This document shows, in pieces, positions 6,704-61,261 of a stretch of 64,000 nucleotides of DNA (its first letter is position 1; each line of letters begins with the position of its first letter). Origin of the DNA: Candidatus Saccharimonadota bacterium (GTDB taxonomy: Bacteria > Patescibacteriota > Saccharimonadia > CAILAD01 > BJGX01); contig JAXLZU010000001.1 in assembly GCA_046350735.1 (NCBI GenBank), positions 574,297-638,296 of the forward strand, written 5' to 3'. The notes beneath the pieces are model-generated. The model searched no databases, was not told the origin of the DNA, and was given only the letters and a program-made list of their open reading frames with translations. The translations under genes were made by a program, and so were the position numbers.

Positions 6704-7185
6704 ACTAGCCTCTTGTGCATAGAATACATATCAACTCCGGCAATATATTCTGGTAAGATTTTATCAAACTCAAAGCCTTGACGCTCATAAAAATGTTGCT
6801 GATTATGTGTAATAAGCGATAATCCATCAACCTGTTTTTTCTGCAGCCTTTCTTCTGTAAATAGTAATAATTTCTTGCCCAATCCCTGTCCCCGATAGTC
6901 CGAGCCTACATACATCCAAAATAAAAATGCAGTATTATTTTTTTGAATGCCACTAAGACTGTAGCCAATTAGCTCGGCTCTATTATACAAACCCAACACA
7001 AGTCGCTTGGGGTGTAGAGTGGCCAATTGTAAGCGCGAGGGACGATTGTTCTGTCTAACCTCTGCTCGGTATACCGGAGAAAAATAGGCAAAGTCGGTTT
7101 CGAGCGCATGATTAAAGAGATTACTTAATCGTCCGCTATGATGAATAGGTATTGTGCGTATACGAATATCTTGGTGAGTGGGCAT
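6700..7185 (-). CDS. GNAT family N-acetyltransferase
   Basis: The motif YRGQGLGKKLL...YERQGFE matches the acetyl-CoA binding motif A. It overlaps the upstream gene by 4 nt. Confidence 0.7.
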   Translation of the reverse strand: MPTHQDIRIRTIPIHHSGRLSNLFNHALETDFAYFSPVYRAEVRQNNRPSRLQLATLHPKRLVLGLYNRAELIGYSLSGIQKNNTAFLFWMYVGSDYRGQGLGKKLLLFTEERLQKKQVDGLSLITHNQQHFYERQGFEFDKILPEYIAGVDMYSMHKRLV

Positions 7186-14955: not shown

Positions 14956-15723
14956 CTATGGTCTTAGCGTACCGGCAAATACTTGCCAGGCCAGAGCCGA
15001 CTTAGCTACCAAGCTAAGAATAATGTATACTCGCTCGCCAAAAAGGTAGTTCTTCCATGGTCCCCACTTTTTGTATTGCAAGAACATATTGAGAGCAAAG
15101 CAGTTAAAGAAGATAAAGATACTTACATATATCCAGTAGACAAAGGTTGGAATCTGTCCGCTTCCATACGCCGAGCTAGCCCAGAACGACAAACCAATTA
15201 CTACCCATGGCACAATACCAGCAATACAGCCCACAATATAACTTATCCATTTGGTCTTCTGAGTAGTCTGATTATGAATTTCCATAACAAGACCGCAGAG
15301 GTTCATAACAGCTACCAAACTAAAGAGCATTATAAGGCTTCCGAGGTCGTAAATACCTACTAGCATAGCAATAGCCACTATCATGGTAGAGGCTGAGACA
15401 CTGTATTCTATCCATCGTGCCCTATTCATACCCTTGCTAAGGTCTTTTTTGTACTTGGGGTACCAAATAGTAGATATTATTAGATGCGCTGTCATACTCA
15501 TCAGTAAGAAGCCAATTATCAACCAAGCAAGTGGTAAATTATAGATTACCTTGGTGGCCGGCTCTAGGCTCTGAGTGAGCCGATTAAATGTTAGGTAACT
15601 TACCGATACCGGTAGGGTAAATTTCTTGGCCAGTAACCACATGGCTAGGGCTTGCAAGCCAAATATTGGCACCATTATGGCATTAAATTTACGTAAGCTT
15701 TCTGCAGTAATCTTCTTACTCAT
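14956..15723 (-). CDS. Heliorhodopsin (7-TM retinal-binding photoreceptor)
   Basis: It is 255 aa with 7 TM helices. RWIEYSVSASTMIVAIAML (TM3 with Glu counterion), CIAGIVPWVVIGL and GERVYIILSLVAKSALAWQVF (TM7 with Schiff-base Lys) match the heliorhodopsin signature as I remember it from 48C12. Confidence 0.75.
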   Translation of the reverse strand: MSKKITAESLRKFNAIMVPIFGLQALAMWLLAKKFTLPVSVSYLTFNRLTQSLEPATKVIYNLPLAWLIIGFLLMSMTAHLIISTIWYPKYKKDLSKGMNRARWIEYSVSASTMIVAIAMLVGIYDLGSLIMLFSLVAVMNLCGLVMEIHNQTTQKTKWISYIVGCIAGIVPWVVIGLSFWASSAYGSGQIPTFVYWIYVSIFIFFNCFALNMFLQYKKWGPWKNYLFGERVYIILSLVAKSALAWQVFAGTLRP

Positions 15724-17901: not shown

Positions 17902-18282
17902 TTAGTGACTTGCATGCTCGGCTTCGGCAGCTTCGGCATCGGCCTTGGTTGCGTGTACTGTGCCGGCAGGATGATGTGGTGGGCTATAAGTAGTAATTAT
18001 CTTCATTGGCGCATCGCCTACGGTAGTAAAGTTGTGCTCGGTGCCAGCTGGTACTAGCACAGCATCGCCTTCGTTAAACTCACTTTTTTCGCCATTTAGC
18101 ACTACTTCACCTTTACCACTAACAAGGTAGAGAACTTGGTCGTTATCTGGGTGGGTCTCGAGGCCAATATCTTCGCCCGGATTAATATGCATTACCACTA
18201 TCTGCGTGTGCTTACCATTAGCCAATACTGTACGAAACGTTGTGTTGTTAAGAGCTTGTTGTTTGAGATCTTTAAGATGCAT
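17902..18282 (-). CDS. Cupin-domain protein
   Basis: It carries the cupin motifs G(x)5HxH-like GEDIGLETHPDNDQVLYLVSGKG ... GDAVLVPAGTEHNF. Confidence 0.65.
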   Translation of the reverse strand: MHLKDLKQQALNNTTFRTVLANGKHTQIVVMHINPGEDIGLETHPDNDQVLYLVSGKGEVVLNGEKSEFNEGDAVLVPAGTEHNFTTVGDAPMKIITTYSPPHHPAGTVHATKADAEAAEAEHASH

Positions 18283-18360
18283 ACTACTTCTCCTTGTTTA
18301 TAGTTCTATTATACACCCCGTATCAGTTGTATAGCGAATTGGCTAACTAATACAAGAAAA

Positions 18361-18990
18361 CTATTCTATATTTTTTGAGGACTCAAAAATTTTAGAAACT
18401 AAACTTTTTCGTGCGTAAAATGCCCGACTAACGGAACCGTGTCCTGGTCCTTTAGTCCTAGCCTGAATCCATTTACCATCCCTACCTGTTAACGATTCGA
18501 AACCCTGTTTAAGTAATTTATTTCTAATAAACTCATAATCTTCTTGGATTTCCTTAATCAAGTCATCATCCTCTAAAAAATCCATACTAGTCACATCTAA
18601 CAAGATTGAATCTTCAGCATTTTTACCTGTCCACTCTACCGCACAAAAAACTAATGATTTTAACTTTGCCCAGCAGTGACTATCAAAAAAGGGATCAGTT
18701 GCAAGTTCAGAGGGATTAATCATAGTTATAGCCATAGTTTCTTTCGGCACAAGCTTACCTTTTACCCTGTAGAAGCTGACAGATTTTAATTCATAAGATA
18801 GGCCATTTGGTGCTTTATGCGAATTATTTGTTAAACCTGCCAATCTTTCAAGTACAAGTCCTTTCCAGCCTTTATTCTGATTTCCGGTTTCGAAAGTAGT
18901 AATACCTAATTCTAGAGCTAATTCTCTGAGATTTTGATTTATATACTTTCTAAGATTTTCAATCGCAACTGTACGAGTGACAATTTTCAT
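18361..18990 (-). CDS. Type II restriction endonuclease, MutH/Sau3AI family (probably GATC-specific)
   Basis: NQNKGWKGLVLERLAG...LSYELKSV aligns with the MutH core KGWIGVLLEIWLG...GVELKT. It overlaps the adjacent methyltransferase by 4 nt. Confidence 0.65.
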   Translation of the reverse strand: MKIVTRTVAIENLRKYINQNLRELALELGITTFETGNQNKGWKGLVLERLAGLTNNSHKAPNGLSYELKSVSFYRVKGKLVPKETMAITMINPSELATDPFFDSHCWAKLKSLVFCAVEWTGKNAEDSILLDVTSMDFLEDDDLIKEIQEDYEFIRNKLLKQGFESLTGRDGKWIQARTKGPGHGSVSRAFYARKSLVSKIFESSKNIE

Positions 18991-19829
18991 AACGTTTTTG
19001 CTTCCAAGAATCTTTTTTTAGACAAATCTAAATATTCTTTTTCTGTATCAATCCCAATAAATTTCCTATTGTACTTATTTGCAACTATCCCTGTAGTAGA
19101 GCTTCCCGTAAATGGATCTAATATTAAATCATTTTCATTACTTGAAGCTAAAATAATTCGCTCCAAAAGCGCTATTGGTTTTTGGGTTGGGTGTTTACCA
19201 AACTTCTTTTCGCTTGGCCCCGGTGTAGTAATTGACCAAACACTACGCATCTGTTTATCAGGCTTCTTTATAAAATCATTGTCATGCCAATTTCCATGTT
19301 TCATATCTTTATAATTGTAAGTATGTTTACCATTAGGATCTTTTCTTGCCCATAATAAAGTTTCATGACTAGCAGTAAAATACCTACCACTTAAGTTGGG
19401 TGCAGCATTCGGTTTAAACCATGTTATATCATTTAAAATTTTATATCCAATTGTCTGAATTGCATAACCACATTGATAAATTGAGTGATAAGTACCACTC
19501 ACCCATATTGACCCGTTTGGCTTTAAAACTCTATAGCATTCAGTAAGCCACTTAAAGTGGAACTTAAAATCCTCAACTACACCATTGCTTTTATCCCAAT
19601 TACCCTTATTTACACTTACCCTTTTACCCGCATGCACTGTAAATCCGCCATTAGAAAGATTGTATGGAGGATCCGCAAAAATCATATCAATTGAATCAGA
19701 TTTTAAGTTTCGCAGAAACAACAGTGAATCAGCATTGTGTAGCTCGAAAAAACCGTCTTTAAAATACGCTTTCTTGAAAGTTTTATGAAACTTAGAATCT
19801 TTTTTTGATGTTAACTCTTTTATATTCAC
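18987..19829 (-). CDS. DNA methyltransferase, beta-class N6-adenine/N4-cytosine (DPPY)
   Basis: IFADPPYNLSNGGF is catalytic motif IV. A downstream FxGxG-like motif ILDPFTGSSTTG (motif I) gives the beta-class order. Confidence 0.85.
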   Translation of the reverse strand: MNIKELTSKKDSKFHKTFKKAYFKDGFFELHNADSLLFLRNLKSDSIDMIFADPPYNLSNGGFTVHAGKRVSVNKGNWDKSNGVVEDFKFHFKWLTECYRVLKPNGSIWVSGTYHSIYQCGYAIQTIGYKILNDITWFKPNAAPNLSGRYFTASHETLLWARKDPNGKHTYNYKDMKHGNWHDNDFIKKPDKQMRSVWSITTPGPSEKKFGKHPTQKPIALLERIILASSNENDLILDPFTGSSTTGIVANKYNRKFIGIDTEKEYLDLSKKRFLEAKTL

Positions 19830-19940
19830 TATTGCCTACCACCTTCCATTGATTCACTTAGATAATTGATTATACATCCTCTTTATTCAATTATATACCG
19901 AACACTATACGAATACAAGAAACCTCGTTCGATATTATAA

Positions 19941-20453
19941 TTATTCAATATCGAAAAGTAAGTTTTGAACATCACTATAGTCCAAAAAAGACATTATGGC
20001 GTTTTCTTCTTTGAAGATGGTAGTATTACGAACTATTTCCGATACATCTTCTAACATTAGTAACACTGAATTAACATCGCCTCTGAGAGAATGAAAGGTG
20101 GCTAATGATAAGTTATTTCCAATATGTGCAATAACAAGATGTCTCCAGTCTTTAATGTTTTTTAAGGTCTGCTGATGTTTGTCTATGATAACCCTTAAAT
20201 TACTTATTAGTTCATCCTTTTCTTGGTATTTTTTTGTTTCATTGAGGTATTTCTCTATATTATATTGAGACTTATCCCATATCTTATAGGCGTTAATATA
20301 CATTGTTGTTATAGTACAATTTGAAAGGGGATTTGATAATTTATTCTTTGGATTTGAATTTATCACTTTTGCAATTTTTGCGGCGTTTGTTGCAAAAATA
20401 ATGCTAGAGTAAAAAAGCGTATGCCTGTTTTTTCTATCTTCAACGCTCATCAT
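19941..20453 (-). CDS. Hypothetical protein in an AT-rich island, with a possible HEPN-like Rx5H motif
   Basis: The motif WRHLVIAHIG gives R-x5-H. GC content is well below that of neighbouring genes. It sits beside the R-M pair. Confidence 0.35.
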   Translation of the reverse strand: MMSVEDRKNRHTLFYSSIIFATNAAKIAKVINSNPKNKLSNPLSNCTITTMYINAYKIWDKSQYNIEKYLNETKKYQEKDELISNLRVIIDKHQQTLKNIKDWRHLVIAHIGNNLSLATFHSLRGDVNSVLLMLEDVSEIVRNTTIFKEENAIMSFLDYSDVQNLLFDIE

Positions 20454-20557
20454 TGTTTACTAAGGACCCTTACTTACCTGTATTATAATTTAATGTTTAT
20501 GAAAATATGATTCTAGATACCAATTTTATGATCATTTATGCTTCATAGTAAATTAAT

Positions 20558-20586
20558 ATAAAAAAAGACGGCTATTACACCGTCTA
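20558..20586 (-). terminator. Rho-independent terminator for gene 20612..20992
   Basis: The stem agacgg/ccgtct has a 9-nt loop and is followed on the minus strand by a T7 run. Confidence 0.6.
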
Positions 20587-20611
20587 AAACTTTCATCTGT
20601 TACTGCTCTAG

Positions 20612-20992
20612 CTAAGCGTTGCTGGCATCTTGGCTCTCCTCTACCTCTTTGATGGTGCTGCTGCTAATAGCTAACTCGTACTCGCTGCCGTCAGTAGCAA
20701 TTACTCTAATACTATCTTCGCGACTTTGATACGTCTCGTTAAAGTAATAAAACACTGCGGTTACAAGTACCGGCTCGTGGTTAAGAAATTTGCGTCTACC
20801 AAAATCGGAATGAATAGTACCGCCAGAAATTGGCGAAGCACTGCCACTAATTCGTATGCGTCTACCTACCAAATACTTCTTAACTGCCTCGTCGGCCTTG
20901 TTGGCAGCTTCTTTGGCTGCGCGGGCTTGGCGCCAGGCTTCTTCGGCAGATTTAATAAGATCTTTAGCAGTTGGTGTAGTAGTAGTTGTCAT
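20612..20992 (-). CDS. Hypothetical protein (126 aa)
   Basis: It has a Thr-rich N-terminus, a helical Ala/Lys-rich segment and an unknown C-terminal domain. Confidence 0.35.
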   Translation of the reverse strand: MTTTTTPTAKDLIKSAEEAWRQARAAKEAANKADEAVKKYLVGRRIRISGSASPISGGTIHSDFGRRKFLNHEPVLVTAVFYYFNETYQSREDSIRVIATDGSEYELAISSSTIKEVEESQDASNA

Positions 20993-21105
20993 TGCCTACT
21001 GCCTCGCTTGGGGCTAGAAGGTACATGGAACTACCAGATTATACAACCCTACTAGAATAAGTACAAATACCGGTGTGGCAGAACGTGCAGAGTAGCAATC
21101 TAGTG

Positions 21106-21912
21106 TTATGCTTCTGGCGGGTTTTCGAAGCCCTCTACCAAGAATTGGTTTTTGCCCAATTGCTTGGCCCTGTACATTAACTTGTCGGCGTGGTTTTGTA
21201 AGTCTGCGCTGCTCATACCTTCTCTAAAATGTACAAACCCAATACTGAGTTCTATTTTTCTCACCCCATTATGACTGCCTAAGGCGGGTACCAAGCGGCC
21301 GTCTTCTGCTACCCCTACCCCATTTACCGTCTCTAGAATGGTCTCGGCAATATCTATGACGCGTGCTTGGTTGGCACCATCGATACCCACCAAAAACTCA
21401 TCTCCACTTCGGCGCGCAGCAATATCTTGGTTTTCTCTAACAACGCGCTCTATAAGCTTGGCAATAAATTTTAGTACTTCGTCGCCAACATTATGGCCAT
21501 ATCTGTCATTAATCTGCTTAAAGCCGTCCATGTCTATAAACCCAATAGATAGTTCTTGAGGGCGTTGCTTAATTTTTTGCTCTAACCAGTTATCGAAGCT
21601 TTCTTTATTGGCCAGGCCCGTAAGGCCATCTACTGTGCTATTATGCTGGGCTTCGTTACCTTTATTCTTTTCGGCGTGCAGCTGCAAATGCGACTCTACT
21701 AACTTAGATTGTAATTCTTCTAGGGTATGCTCTAGCCAGGCAGCATCGGTCTCGGCGGCAATTTGTTCTTTGCTGGGCTCTAGCACGCGCCAAGAATGTT
21801 CGTTTTGTGCCTCAATAACTTCGTCTTTGGTAAGTGGCTTTGGTTGGCGCTCTAGCTGAATGCCCTGCATGTCTTGGGGCGATAAGCGCAAGCTGTCGTT
21901 AAATTCGCTCAT
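21106..21912 (-). CDS. GGDEF-domain diguanylate-cyclase-like protein with a coiled-coil N-terminus; the A-site reads SGDEF
   Basis: It has LTGLANKESF, GFIDMDGFKQINDRYGH and ARRSGDEFLVG. The canonical form is RxGGDEF; here the first Gly is replaced by Ser. Confidence 0.75.
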   Translation of the reverse strand: MSEFNDSLRLSPQDMQGIQLERQPKPLTKDEVIEAQNEHSWRVLEPSKEQIAAETDAAWLEHTLEELQSKLVESHLQLHAEKNKGNEAQHNSTVDGLTGLANKESFDNWLEQKIKQRPQELSIGFIDMDGFKQINDRYGHNVGDEVLKFIAKLIERVVRENQDIAARRSGDEFLVGIDGANQARVIDIAETILETVNGVGVAEDGRLVPALGSHNGVRKIELSIGFVHFREGMSSADLQNHADKLMYRAKQLGKNQFLVEGFENPPEA

Positions 21913-26888: not shown

Positions 26889-26985
26889 TATCTGTTTTTA
26901 AGTAAAGAATATGTAAACAGCCTACTTTGGGTGTATAATAGCCATTATGATTCAATTTTTGCAATCTTCTGTAACTAAATATTCT

Positions 26986-58090: not shown

Positions 58091-58138
58091 GTCAATATCT
58101 AATTCCCCGCTTTAGCATGGCTAGCAGCTACTTTGGCC
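58091..58138. repeat. Direct repeat copy B (HK 3' end, includes the HK stop codon)
   Basis: This is the partner of 56834..56881. Confidence 0.75.
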
Positions 58139-60303
58139 CCAATCTTCTTACTTTCTTCTAATACTGCTTTTGGAATCCCACTTAGAGGTAGCTTAAATCC
58201 AAAGGTAGACCCCTTACCTTCTTTGCTCTCAAACCATATCTCACCGCCTTGTTGCTCTACTACACGCTTTACCAAATAGAGCCCTAGGCCGGTACCGTCT
58301 GGACGCACGCCTTGAGCGTTGGGGGCACGGAACATCTTAGTAAAGAGTTTCTTTTGCACTGCTTCTGGCACACCAATACCGTCATCAGCCACCCAAAACT
58401 CCACAAAATCACCATTAAGAACCAAGCTAACCTTTACATGCCCGCCACCATTCGGTGGGGCGCTATAATGCAAGGCGTTGTCTACAAGGTTCATTACAAC
58501 TTGGCGGGTCTTATTTTCGTCGAGTAAGATAACTGGAATCTTTTGCTTGGGAGGCTCGTACGTTAGCTTAACATTCTTGCCTTCGGCAAAGCTTTTTAGC
58601 TGCTCGAGCTCTTCGGGTACAAGTTTGTTTAGGTCTACCTGATTACCTTCTAAAAAGAATCTATTAGCATCCATACGACTTACATTAAGTAAATCGTCTA
58701 TTAAGCGGGCCATACGATTAGAGCCATCGAGCGTTTGCTCGACAATCTTAGATTGCTCTTTGGTAAGTTTTCCAAAATCCCCTTCTTCTAACATACTGGC
58801 ATAGCCTTTAACGGTAGTAAGAGGTGTACGTAGCTGATGAGAAGCCATACTAATAAATTCATCTTTGGCTTTATCGAGCTCTTTTAGCTGATCGTTAGCA
58901 TGGCGCAGCTGAGCAGTACGTTGCCTTACCTTCTCGGCCAATGTTTCGCTAAAGAGTTGGATTTCTTTATAACTTAGTGCATTAGCCATAGCTACACTCA
59001 CTTCGTTGGCAATAATCTTAAGTACCGCCAGGTCTTGGTCGTTATAAATATCGCCACTCTTCTTTTCGCCAAGTAGCATATAGCCAATAAATTTCTCACT
59101 AGTACGCAGGGCTAGGCTAATAGTAATGCCGTATTTTTGCATTAGCTCTTTTCTTTCACCGCTTTGCAAATCGTCTACAACTAGCATTACTCGCCCCAAC
59201 TTACTTAGCTCGTTTGGACTTATTTTGCCATCACCATTTTTAAAGACATTGTTCTCATAAAATAATTGATTCTCACCAAAAACAACAATTTCTGCTTTCT
59301 CAATCTTTATTTGTTTACTTAGCTCACGCAAGACTCGCGAGCTAACTTTGTCTAGGTCTATTTCTGAAGCTAAGATTCGTCCAATCTCATTTACCAACGC
59401 TTGGCTATCATATCTATCACGGTAAAAAATCTTGTTAGAAATACGCTCGAAGAATCGCCGCAGCGGCGCAAAAGTAAAGGCAAAAATGACAGTTAGAATT
59501 ATATAAAATCCCTCTTGTAGTTGTGGATTTATCTTATTTAGAAAAATAGAAGAAACCCTAAAAGCAATTAATCCATACAAGAGTGCAATCACACCAATTG
59601 TGAGTGAGTATGTAACTGCCCTAACAGCAACAAGACGAATATCAAATAACCGATGTCTTATAATAGCAAAGGCAATAATTGCTATGAAAGCTAGAATAGA
59701 TAAAATAATTGCATACTGTGCTACTGCACTAGACGAATAGAAAAATAAGATGATGAGATTAATTACTGTAGCTTCACCAAAACCAAACATAATAAGATAG
59801 TTTGTTGCTCGCTCGTTTTTTGGTTTTTTTATAGTATTTATAATTAAAATAACGAGGCCATAAATTACATATACCCCTAGAAGCAAAAGAAGAAGAACAT
59901 ACGATATTGGCATATCATTAACTGAAATACCTAATGCAGAAACCGCTACGTCATTTACACCATAAGCTGTAAGGTTTATAACTGCCAGTATTAAACAGGG
60001 CAATAACAGTATTATTTCCCATATGTTGCCTGTCTTCTTGTTTGTAAATCCCCTAAAAAATAATAAAAGAAAATAGCCAATAAAAATTGATGTAGCAATA
60101 GAGAGTCGAATAAATATAACATTTAAGCTAGGATTAATATTTAGTTGAGCCAATGCCTGCCAACTTAACCAGATTGCAGTAGTGAATGTGGTTAGGAAAA
60201 AGGCAGTTACACCAGGTGATTTTCTTCTTAGATAAGTTAAGCCTCCTATAAAAAAGAGGGCAATAATCATCGGCACATATAGAAGCGTTTGAATGACATA
60301 CAT
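58099..60303 (-). CDS. Sensor histidine kinase with a multi-TM N-terminal sensor
   Basis: It has about 9 TM helices, then HisKA (ISMASHQLRTPLTTVKGY) and HATPase_c (N, G1, G2 boxes: DDGIGV, GTGLGLYL). Confidence 0.85.
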   Translation of the reverse strand: MYVIQTLLYVPMIIALFFIGGLTYLRRKSPGVTAFFLTTFTTAIWLSWQALAQLNINPSLNVIFIRLSIATSIFIGYFLLLFFRGFTNKKTGNIWEIILLLPCLILAVINLTAYGVNDVAVSALGISVNDMPISYVLLLLLLGVYVIYGLVILIINTIKKPKNERATNYLIMFGFGEATVINLIILFFYSSSAVAQYAIILSILAFIAIIAFAIIRHRLFDIRLVAVRAVTYSLTIGVIALLYGLIAFRVSSIFLNKINPQLQEGFYIILTVIFAFTFAPLRRFFERISNKIFYRDRYDSQALVNEIGRILASEIDLDKVSSRVLRELSKQIKIEKAEIVVFGENQLFYENNVFKNGDGKISPNELSKLGRVMLVVDDLQSGERKELMQKYGITISLALRTSEKFIGYMLLGEKKSGDIYNDQDLAVLKIIANEVSVAMANALSYKEIQLFSETLAEKVRQRTAQLRHANDQLKELDKAKDEFISMASHQLRTPLTTVKGYASMLEEGDFGKLTKEQSKIVEQTLDGSNRMARLIDDLLNVSRMDANRFFLEGNQVDLNKLVPEELEQLKSFAEGKNVKLTYEPPKQKIPVILLDENKTRQVVMNLVDNALHYSAPPNGGGHVKVSLVLNGDFVEFWVADDGIGVPEAVQKKLFTKMFRAPNAQGVRPDGTGLGLYLVKRVVEQQGGEIWFESKEGKGSTFGFKLPLSGIPKAVLEESKKIGAKVAASHAKAGN

Positions 60304-60340
60304 AAACTAAACCTTTATAATACATATTAACATCTTATTT

Positions 60341-61261
60341 ATGAAAGACCTAAATACATTTCCAGAATTTAAACAGTTATCTTTTAGCGATGCAGAATGG
60401 TACCAAAATTACTATAAAAATTTTCCCCCATATGCAGATCATTATTTTGGAAACCTATTTGCTTGGCTAAATTTTCATGACGATCTAAATATTTCAACTT
60501 TAAATAATAATATTCTTTTTCGGTATATGGATGTATTTGACCCATCCAACCACTCCTTTTCATACACAATCATTGGGGATAATGAGCCAGAATCTACGTT
60601 TGATACTTTTTATAGTCAGAATGACAATAAAAATGTTAAATTCCATATGGTACCAGAGATGTTGGTGAAAAATATAAATCAAACACTATATCAAGTTTCT
60701 GAGGACAGAGATAGTTGGGATTATATCTACAATATAGAAAATTTTATCCATCTAGATGGCCCCGAATACCGTAGGCTTAGATATCAAATCCGTACATTCG
60801 ACAAAGAAAACGGAAATAATTCATCACTAATTTCTTATAATGTCGAGGACGAAAAAGATAACCCTGTTCTTCTCTCTACATTTAAATCTTGGAAGAATGT
60901 TTATCAATTTGGTAATGACCCAGAAGAAATAGAGACGCATGCAATGCAAGAAAGAATACTTAATTATCAACATATACCTTTTAATTGTTTGCAGTATTTT
61001 TATAAGAACAAACTAAGTGGTTTTGTAATATACAGTTACCCGCCACAGAATGAATACGCTATTATTCATCATTTAAAATGTAGTTATGAATTAGAATATA
61101 TGTTTGACTACATCTTTTTCGAAGCACTCAAGCTGTTTCACAAGGATGGTAAAAAATACCTAAATCTAGAGCAAGATTTGGGCAAACCAGGACTGAGAAA
61201 ACATAAAGAACTCCTACGTCCAGAACGATACCTAAAAAAATACATAGTAAAAAAGAGCTAG
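60341..61261 (+). CDS. Hypothetical protein in an AT-rich segment, possibly DUF2156/LPG-synthase-C-like (GNAT fold)
   Basis: It is a 306-aa Asn/Tyr/Phe-rich protein. The family assignment is only an impression. Confidence 0.3.
   Translation: MKDLNTFPEFKQLSFSDAEWYQNYYKNFPPYADHYFGNLFAWLNFHDDLNISTLNNNILFRYMDVFDPSNHSFSYTIIGDNEPESTFDTFYSQNDNKNVKFHMVPEMLVKNINQTLYQVSEDRDSWDYIYNIENFIHLDGPEYRRLRYQIRTFDKENGNNSSLISYNVEDEKDNPVLLSTFKSWKNVYQFGNDPEEIETHAMQERILNYQHIPFNCLQYFYKNKLSGFVIYSYPPQNEYAIIHHLKCSYELEYMFDYIFFEALKLFHKDGKKYLNLEQDLGKPGLRKHKELLRPERYLKKYIVKKS

Follow-up and report, generated by a model that had tools for sequence, protein, structure and literature searches.

The 64-kb stretch of Candidatus Saccharimonadota DNA analysed here (hereafter the window) carries on its minus strand an open reading frame (ORF) of 170 residues (20453–19941) which, judged from its sequence, encodes a small, single-domain and divergent HEPN protein of the AbiU2 family. 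The explanation that we consider best is that this AbiU2-type HEPN gene shares an AT-rich insertion with a coupled type II restriction-modification (R-M) pair and encodes a predicted abortive-infection or second-line ribonuclease (RNase) effector; we give this reading as a whole a probability of roughly 0.55. The gene is a divergent new member of a known family and does not represent a new kind of system.

Family, motif and predicted structure of the 170-residue protein

The 170-residue protein matched the Pfam model HEPN_AbiU2 (PF18734) with an E-value of 5e-8 and a score of 33.1 bits, above the gathering cut-off of 26.8 bits. When 1.84 billion representative sequences were searched exhaustively with HMMER (E ≤ 1e-3), 11 proteins were listed, which consisted of the protein's own cluster, nine true homologs aligning over the full length (E-values down to 1e-20), and P0011. 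The last of these, a repetitive protein of 523 residues, was set aside as a false positive. Two extra members were obtained, namely P0015 from a profile search and a protein encoded at locus L006 in a metagenome-assembled genome (MAG) of Candidatus Microsaccharimonas, and the subfamily comprised 12 members in all. PF18734 was matched by all ten of the subfamily members that were aligned, with a best E-value of 1.7e-13, and the L006 member scored 37.9 bits. The members are 24–36% identical to the window protein and 17–50% identical among the 12; on the evidence of these sequences, the subfamily is a sub-branch of the AbiU2 family that is both rare and very divergent. A word-indexed search recovered nothing beyond the 170-residue protein itself. 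No homolog of the HEPN protein was found by tblastn among plasmids and phages or in IMG/VR, none was returned by the genome and metagenome scans with the A2 profile and with P0013, and PADLOC, NCBIfam and PHROGs gave no match for the protein.

The segment WRHLVIAHIG corresponds to residues 103–112 and contains the putative catalytic motif R104-x5-H110, whose codons (R104-H-L-V-I-A-H110) lie at 20124–20144 on the minus strand. The Rx5H motif by itself is not evidence, because R-x(4-6)-H was present in 41% of shuffles of the 170-residue protein; a second, unconserved R-x5-H is also found at R87. It is the invariance of the residues that counts. R104 and H110, together with N54 and D60, were invariant in all 12 subfamily members, so that the arginine and the histidine singled out in the initial annotation are indeed conserved among the homologs. 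The HEPN-like character that had been read from WRHLVIAHIG is supported independently of the motif by the PF18734 match, by this invariance, and by the topology of the AlphaFold2 (AF2) model described below. On the other hand, the gene had been taken for an orphan of unknown family, and this description does not hold, as HEPN_AbiU2 is a known Pfam family. The two ORFs had likewise been called unannotatable; the above-threshold Pfam match removes this label from the 170-residue protein. The neighbouring 126-residue protein had no match in Pfam, NCBIfam, PADLOC, or PHROGs.

The AF2 model was built with a 10-sequence alignment and showed a predicted local distance difference test (pLDDT) score of 86.8 and a predicted template modelling (pTM) score of 0.84; the single-sequence AF2 prediction reached a pLDDT of only 37. 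The modelled protein is all-alpha, with helices at residues 4–33, 40–59, 94–110, and 117–142, a helical insert at 66–92, and a loop at 111–116. Predicted helix 3 (94–110) ends, at its C terminus, in the segment from R104 to H110, and the invariant N54 and D60 are located at the end of helix 2. In the published description of HEPN domains (PMC3710099), helix 3 ends in the motif, helix 2 contains an acidic residue, and an insert separates helices 2 and 3; the layout predicted by the model agrees with this description. The trimmed family profile aligned WRNkliaH with KKLRNHCVAH of 3jrt, a solved HEPN protein from an integron cassette, at a sub-threshold E-value of ~0.05. The highest-probability Foldseek match of the model was the HEPN toxin HepT (6m6u_H; probability 0.93, template modelling (TM) scores 0.47/0.58), with an E-value of 0.7 that is not significant. 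Matches of the full-length profile to de novo coiled-coil designs and to adhesins among the PDB sequences were treated as compositional artefacts.

The AT-rich insertion and the restriction-modification pair

The two minus-strand ORFs reported in the initial annotation, of 170 residues (19941–20453) and 126 residues (20612–20992), are both present, and so are their neighbours: an N6/N4-type methyltransferase (MTase) gene and a restriction endonuclease (REase) gene downstream of both ORFs, and a GGDEF gene upstream (21106–21912). The extent of the AT-rich DNA differs from the initial description. The G+C (GC) content is 0.28–0.35 across ~18300–20600, and 0.28–0.31 in the subregion 19830–20600. 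For the individual parts, the values are 0.304 (170-residue ORF), 0.332 (MTase gene), and 0.351 (REase gene), with 0.325 for the whole island and 0.44–0.45 for the flanks. Taken as a block of 2,234 bp, the island has a GC content of 0.327, the minimum of the window for that size (mean 0.421, standard deviation 0.028). The 126-residue ORF, with 0.465, resembles the flanks. Judged from the GC distribution, the foreign-looking unit therefore comprises the 170-residue gene, the MTase gene, and the REase gene; it does not coincide with the pair of ORFs located between the MTase and GGDEF genes. The AT-rich DNA placed between these two genes is real (19830–20600), but the boundaries drawn for it were wrong, as it extends through the MTase and REase genes to ~18319.

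Comparison with syntenic relatives located both ends of the unit. Two contigs of GCA_009613035.1, L002 and L003, keep the order GGDEF ... 126-residue homolog ... cupin – DUF1622 ... NUDIX, and in both of them the slot between the 126-residue homolog and the cupin gene holds an 83-residue ORF and a 137-residue HNH gene, with no HEPN, MTase, and REase genes. The terminator region of the window (20557–20586) is 97% identical to L002 3112–3141, which is situated 3' of the HNH gene there, and the cupin promoter region of the window (18290–18322) is 91% identical to L002 3156–3188. The distance from the terminator to the cupin promoter is 14 nt in L002 and ~25 nt in L003, compared with 2.23 kb in the window. 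Since the relatives without the three genes keep the terminator and the cupin promoter 14–25 nt apart, the insertion is a clean one: the island, bounded by GC content and by the synteny breakpoints, is the 2.2-kb segment 18319–20556, inserted precisely at the junction of a host terminator with the host promoter that follows it. The same arrangement recurs with 99.8% identity in an independent assembly, L001, whose 170-residue ORF is identical. The two ORFs had been proposed as candidate cargo of a defense island. For the 170-residue gene this was correct in that it resides in a 2.2-kb insertion absent from the syntenic relatives; the 126-residue gene, with its host-like GC content and its syntenic counterparts, is not AT-rich cargo, and no wider island surrounds the insertion.

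The MTase gene (19829–18987, minus strand) encodes a beta-class N6-adenine DNA methyltransferase with a DPPY motif, which matched PF01555 (E = 1e-62) and the PADLOC model MTase_II (E = 9e-98); among solved structures, CcrM and DpnA are closest to it. The REase gene (18990–18361, minus strand) encodes a MutH/Sau3AI-like type II enzyme, with matches to the Sau3AI family (E = 2e-13) and MutH (1e-10) in NCBIfam, to REase_II in PADLOC (4.5e-10), and to MutH in the PDB (1e-6). The two genes are co-oriented, and the stop codon of the MTase gene overlaps the start codon of the REase gene by 4 nt; the two form a type II R-M pair with translational coupling. In the REase motif, P-N-x4-E-x-K, an asparagine takes the place of the catalytic aspartate of MutH (D70) and Sau3AI. 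We considered whether the replacement marks a dead gene and rejected this idea, because the asparagine is kept in three REase homologs with 39–59% identity and is hence a trait of the family. Homologs of the REase were found in four viral contigs of IMG/VR and in a 595-kb uncultured-phage record (LR756511.1 475766–476365), with coordinates 4001–4654 in L014, 2488–3102 in L015, and 3995–4594 in L016; tblastn of the REase against plasmids gave none.

The R-M pair probably recognises GATC. This specificity is suggested by the MutH/Sau3AI-like nature of the REase, by the closeness of the MTase to DpnA, by the Dam-class D12 MTase with which the nearest homolog of the REase (L014; 59% identity) is paired, and by the depletion of GATC in the window. 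The homologs in L015 and L016 are paired with an MTase of the same class as that of the window. GATC occurs 116 times in the window against 162 expected, and the ratio of observed to expected (O/E) counts, 0.72, is lower than for any other of the 16 four-base palindromes; for GANTC, with an O/E of 1.03, there is no depletion.

The spacers of the islet contain an imperfect direct repeat of ~65 nt, which outscores every other non-self match in the window (alignment score 39, compared with 16.5 ± 2.6 for 2000 shuffles). Copy A (19869–19936, minus strand) lies in the spacer that separates the HEPN gene from the MTase gene and ends in the extended -10-like box TGTATAAT, and copy B (18308–18372, minus strand) runs from the stop codon of the REase gene to the cupin promoter GGGTGTATAAT. 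Each copy starts just past a stop codon and ends at a TGTATAAT box, and the right end of copy B is host sequence common to L002 and L003. The repeat may be a sign of stepwise assembly of the islet, the HEPN gene and the M-R pair having been acquired on separate occasions. No antitoxin partner was found for the 170-residue gene, as no ORF of at least 20 residues with coding potential lies beside it. Tandem Repeats Finder (TRF) detected no tandem array in 18200–21100 except for one match within the MTase gene (19 nt, 1.9 copies). No terminator follows the 170-residue ORF, and the RNA folding of the intergenic region was no better than that of shuffles (z = 0.20).

Context of the homologs, proposed function, and alternatives

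The genomic context of the subfamily members links the HEPN protein to R-M systems. Recurrence of homologs beside R-M genes had been put forward as a check, and it was observed at five of the 11 loci of known context, including the window; the other four are type I R-M operons. Denoting the AbiU2-like homolog as X, the gene order is hsdS-X-hsdR in L004 and in L009–11 and hsdM-hsdS-X-hsdR in L006. In L007 (3–5789), three accessory genes stand between hsdM and hsdR, and the order is hsdM-DUF4145(HEPN)-hsdS-AAA_15/21 ATPase-X-hsdR. The homolog overlaps hsdR by 4 nt in L004, L006, L007, and L009–11, and the four homologs embedded in type I operons are 36–47% identical to one another. R-M genes are thus enriched beside the subfamily at the family level. 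A second context is also present: a glycine-tRNA ligase gene (glyQS; NCBIfam PRK04173) lies directly upstream of the homolog, sometimes overlapping it, in L005 (1–1331), L012 (230–2051), L013 (4117–5995), the P0006 contig, and probably P0013. The position downstream of glyQS may be a hotspot, or it may reflect a link to tRNA or translation. Locus L008 was uninformative on context. In a neighbour-joining tree, the R-M-linked and glyQS-linked members were intermingled, and the window protein formed a deep branch.

For the proposed function we rely on the hypothesis that Anantharaman et al. built on PrrC/EcoprrI for R-M-linked HEPN proteins, and the second-line role is derived from it. The 170-residue protein would probably dimerise and thereby form a metal-independent endoRNase site from the invariant R104 and H110, helped by N54 and D60 of helix 2. 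During infection, this site would cleave tRNA, rRNA, or mRNA of the host or the phage, and the protein would back DNA restriction in the role of a second-line or abortive-infection effector. In the 2013 census of HEPN proteins, AbiU2 was described as having a conserved Rx4-6H and as being found in R-M operons, and HEPN versions without the motif were regarded as likely non-catalytic RNA binders (PMC3710099). A single-gene integron cassette of Vibrio mimicus with an HEPN AbiU2 domain was reported to give resistance to T4 and T7 (bioRxiv 10.64898/2026.03.17.712381).

A number of observations weigh against a second-line effector allied with the R-M pair, and several of them bear on the question of whether the gene acts alone. 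The association of the subfamily with a type II system is a single instance, that of the window, and PADLOC has no model that matches the protein. Foldseek searches against the PDB and BFVD yielded generic helical-bundle matches, none of them statistically significant. Within the islet, the ~65-nt repeat brackets the M-R pair alone and leaves the HEPN gene outside, and the 111-bp gap between the HEPN gene and the MTase gene holds the promoter-like TGTATAAT (19869–19876). Moreover, four viral contigs have REase and MTase homologs and lack an AbiU2-like gene, and therefore the M-R pair and the HEPN gene form modules that can be separated. These features could be understood if the protein were a stand-alone defense factor that both detects infection and cleaves RNA unaided, its adjacency to the R-M genes reflecting a shared variable slot without coupling to M or R; we regard this as a serious, though lesser, possibility. 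The gene has its own AT-rich upstream region with a -10-like TTATAAT in addition to the separate box before the MTase gene, the bracketing by the repeat suggests separate acquisition, L014–L017 carry the M-R module but not the HEPN gene, the slot holds other cargo in the relatives (the 83-residue ORF and the HNH gene), and the reportedly protective V. mimicus cassette consists of a single gene. However, four diverged homologs are placed right before hsdR in type I R-M operons with 4-nt overlaps, which points to selected co-expression with restriction subunits at the family level.

Two findings with the name-giving AbiU2 of L. lactis also count against a protective RNase, since this protein lowered AbiU1-mediated resistance instead of conferring any (PMC13064643) and was non-toxic in E. 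coli when expressed alone (PMC3985639). Together with the 4–5 of the 11 homologs that follow glyQS, a stable non-island context with no R-M gene in view, they would fit a role outside defense, such as housekeeping or regulatory RNA binding or processing in tRNA metabolism or translation, or negative modulation of the lactococcal kind, with the R-M adjacency being incidental. We consider such a role unlikely. The window copy resides in a foreign, AT-rich, and strain-variable insertion and not at a conserved housekeeping locus, the arginine and the histidine are invariant, unlike in the motif-less versions held to be likely RNA binders, and the R-M-linked and glyQS-linked members are intermingled in the tree. 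The possibility that the ORF is not a real gene, and that it and its Rx5H arose by chance in AT-rich DNA, is effectively refuted. The frequency of R-x(4-6)-H in the shuffles and the weak, distant ribosome-binding site of the ORF (AAGGG, ~14 nt upstream) would be expected of a spurious ORF, but the full-length homologs, the four invariant polar residues, the Pfam match, the confident AF2 model, and the identity of the ORF in the independent assembly would not.

A more specific form of partnership with restriction can be imagined, in which the subfamily, rare and apparently associated with Saccharibacteria, is a minimal, ATPase-less counterpart of PrrC: an HEPN RNase of ~170 residues would be held inactive by HsdR in the type I operons, or by M or R in the window, and released when a phage disables restriction, and the glyQS-linked paralogs would hint at a target in tRNA or translation. 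This is a long shot in our estimation. If true, it would give a compact R-M-guard module in bacteria of the candidate phyla radiation (CPR), which to our knowledge largely lack CRISPR.

Neighbouring features and comparison with known systems

The 126-residue ORF (20992–20612, minus strand) is a conserved hypothetical gene that is unrelated to the HEPN gene, vertically inherited in the host, and located outside the island. Its orthologs in L002 and L003 are 69% and 64% identical and lie in the same GGDEF ... cupin synteny. Genome, metagenome, and IMG/VR scans for its family were without a find, and a profile of the three sequences gave weak matches (best E = 0.014), nearly all of them with PDB entries of the eukaryotic ribosomal protein eL22. 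In the relatives (L002 2066–3141; L003 2963–4040), the 126-residue gene overlaps the 83-residue ORF, which is followed by the 137-residue HNH endonuclease gene and then by a terminator hairpin of the window type; the 83-residue ORF and the HNH gene are missing from the window. Each of the two ORFs had been credited with its own terminator, and this applies to the 126-residue gene only, nothing terminator-like being present downstream of the 170-residue ORF. The intrinsic terminator of the 126-residue gene (20566–20585, minus strand) lies in host-type sequence and consists of the hairpin AGACGG-TGTAATAG-CCGTCT, with a 7-bp stem, followed by T7. The promoter-like box GGTTGTATAAT at 21038–21048, also in host-type sequence, belongs to the same gene. 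The extended -10-like box GKKTGTATAAT, of which 0.2 copies are expected, occurs four times in the window (6982–6992, 18308–18318, 21038–21048, and 26929–26939), and two of the copies stand just upstream of the cupin gene and the 126-residue gene; it is probably a local promoter consensus.

The genes further out are of the housekeeping type (cupin, DUF1622, NUDIX, heliorhodopsin, GGDEF, and CdsA), with no wider defense island in view. The GGDEF diguanylate cyclase gene (21912–21106, minus strand) is upstream of the 126-residue ORF, and the cupin gene (18282–17902, minus strand) is downstream of the REase gene. No tRNA gene or Rfam element, which might for example serve as an integration site, was detected in the whole 64-kb window. 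A 255-residue protein encoded at 14956–15723 (minus strand) is 60% identical to a heliorhodopsin (PF18761) of the Candidatus Microsaccharimonas MAG (L006 3763–4527), a similarity that suggests a Saccharibacteria-like genome as the source of the window. A second AT-rich patch was noticed at 59500–61000 (GC 0.31–0.32); it was rejected as an island, as it encodes the seven-transmembrane (7TM) N-terminal part of a histidine kinase (58099–60303) and an LPG_synthase_C-like gene (60341–61261).

These results correct the map of the locus, in which the foreign unit is a three-gene, 2.2-kb islet of HEPN, M, and R genes and the 126-residue gene belongs to the host. We know of few antiviral systems in Saccharibacteria, and a divergent branch of AbiU2-type HEPN proteins now joins the short list of their defense-type genes. 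The hsdS-X-hsdR placement with overlapping stop and start codons, in turn, offers a testable case for small HEPN RNases as second-line partners of R-M systems, an idea that has been long proposed and largely untested.

Several known systems resemble the window locus in part. HepT of the HepT-MntA (HEPN-MNT) system is an HEPN toxin of similar size and was the top-probability Foldseek match, at the non-significant E-value given above; the window gene, however, has no MNT or other small partner gene, its neighbours being the MTase gene and the 126-residue gene. Type III toxin-antitoxin systems of the ToxIN/AbiQ-like kind differ in that no tandem-repeat RNA antitoxin array is found upstream of the window gene. 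The integron-cassette HEPN proteins (3jrt Vpc_cass2, and HNPBCG_15845 of V. mimicus with its AbiU2 domain) are likewise solo small HEPN proteins carried as mobile cargo, and the motif K-x-RN-x3-AH aligned, whereas the similarity to 3jrt is sub-threshold and an attC cassette there contrasts with an intergenic insertion together with an R-M pair here. In PrrC/EcoprrI, an HEPN anticodon nuclease is embedded in a type Ic hsdM-hsdS-prrC-hsdR locus, and the logic proposed is that of an RNase kept in reserve behind restriction (PMC3710099). The HEPN nuclease domain with Rx4-6H is shared with PrrC, and four of the homologs, though not the window copy, are similarly positioned between hsdS and hsdR. 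The 170-residue protein is nevertheless not of the PrrC type, because it consists of one domain and lacks an ABC-ATPase domain at its N terminus; the AAA_15/AAA_21 ATPase of L007 is a separate gene preceding the homolog. In addition, the gene in the window stands upstream of a type II M-R pair without being embedded in an operon. The pair itself, an adjacent and co-oriented DPPY MTase and MutH/Sau3AI-like REase of the PD-(D/E)XK kind, has the make-up of type II R-M systems. With the AbiU2 family as described (PF18734; PMC3710099), the differences are that the window copy stands beside a type II and not a type I system and that it has no Sel1-repeat partner. The likeness comprises the above-threshold match to the model, the small single-domain and all-alpha architecture predicted for the protein, the Rx4-6H motif, and the occurrence in R-M operons.

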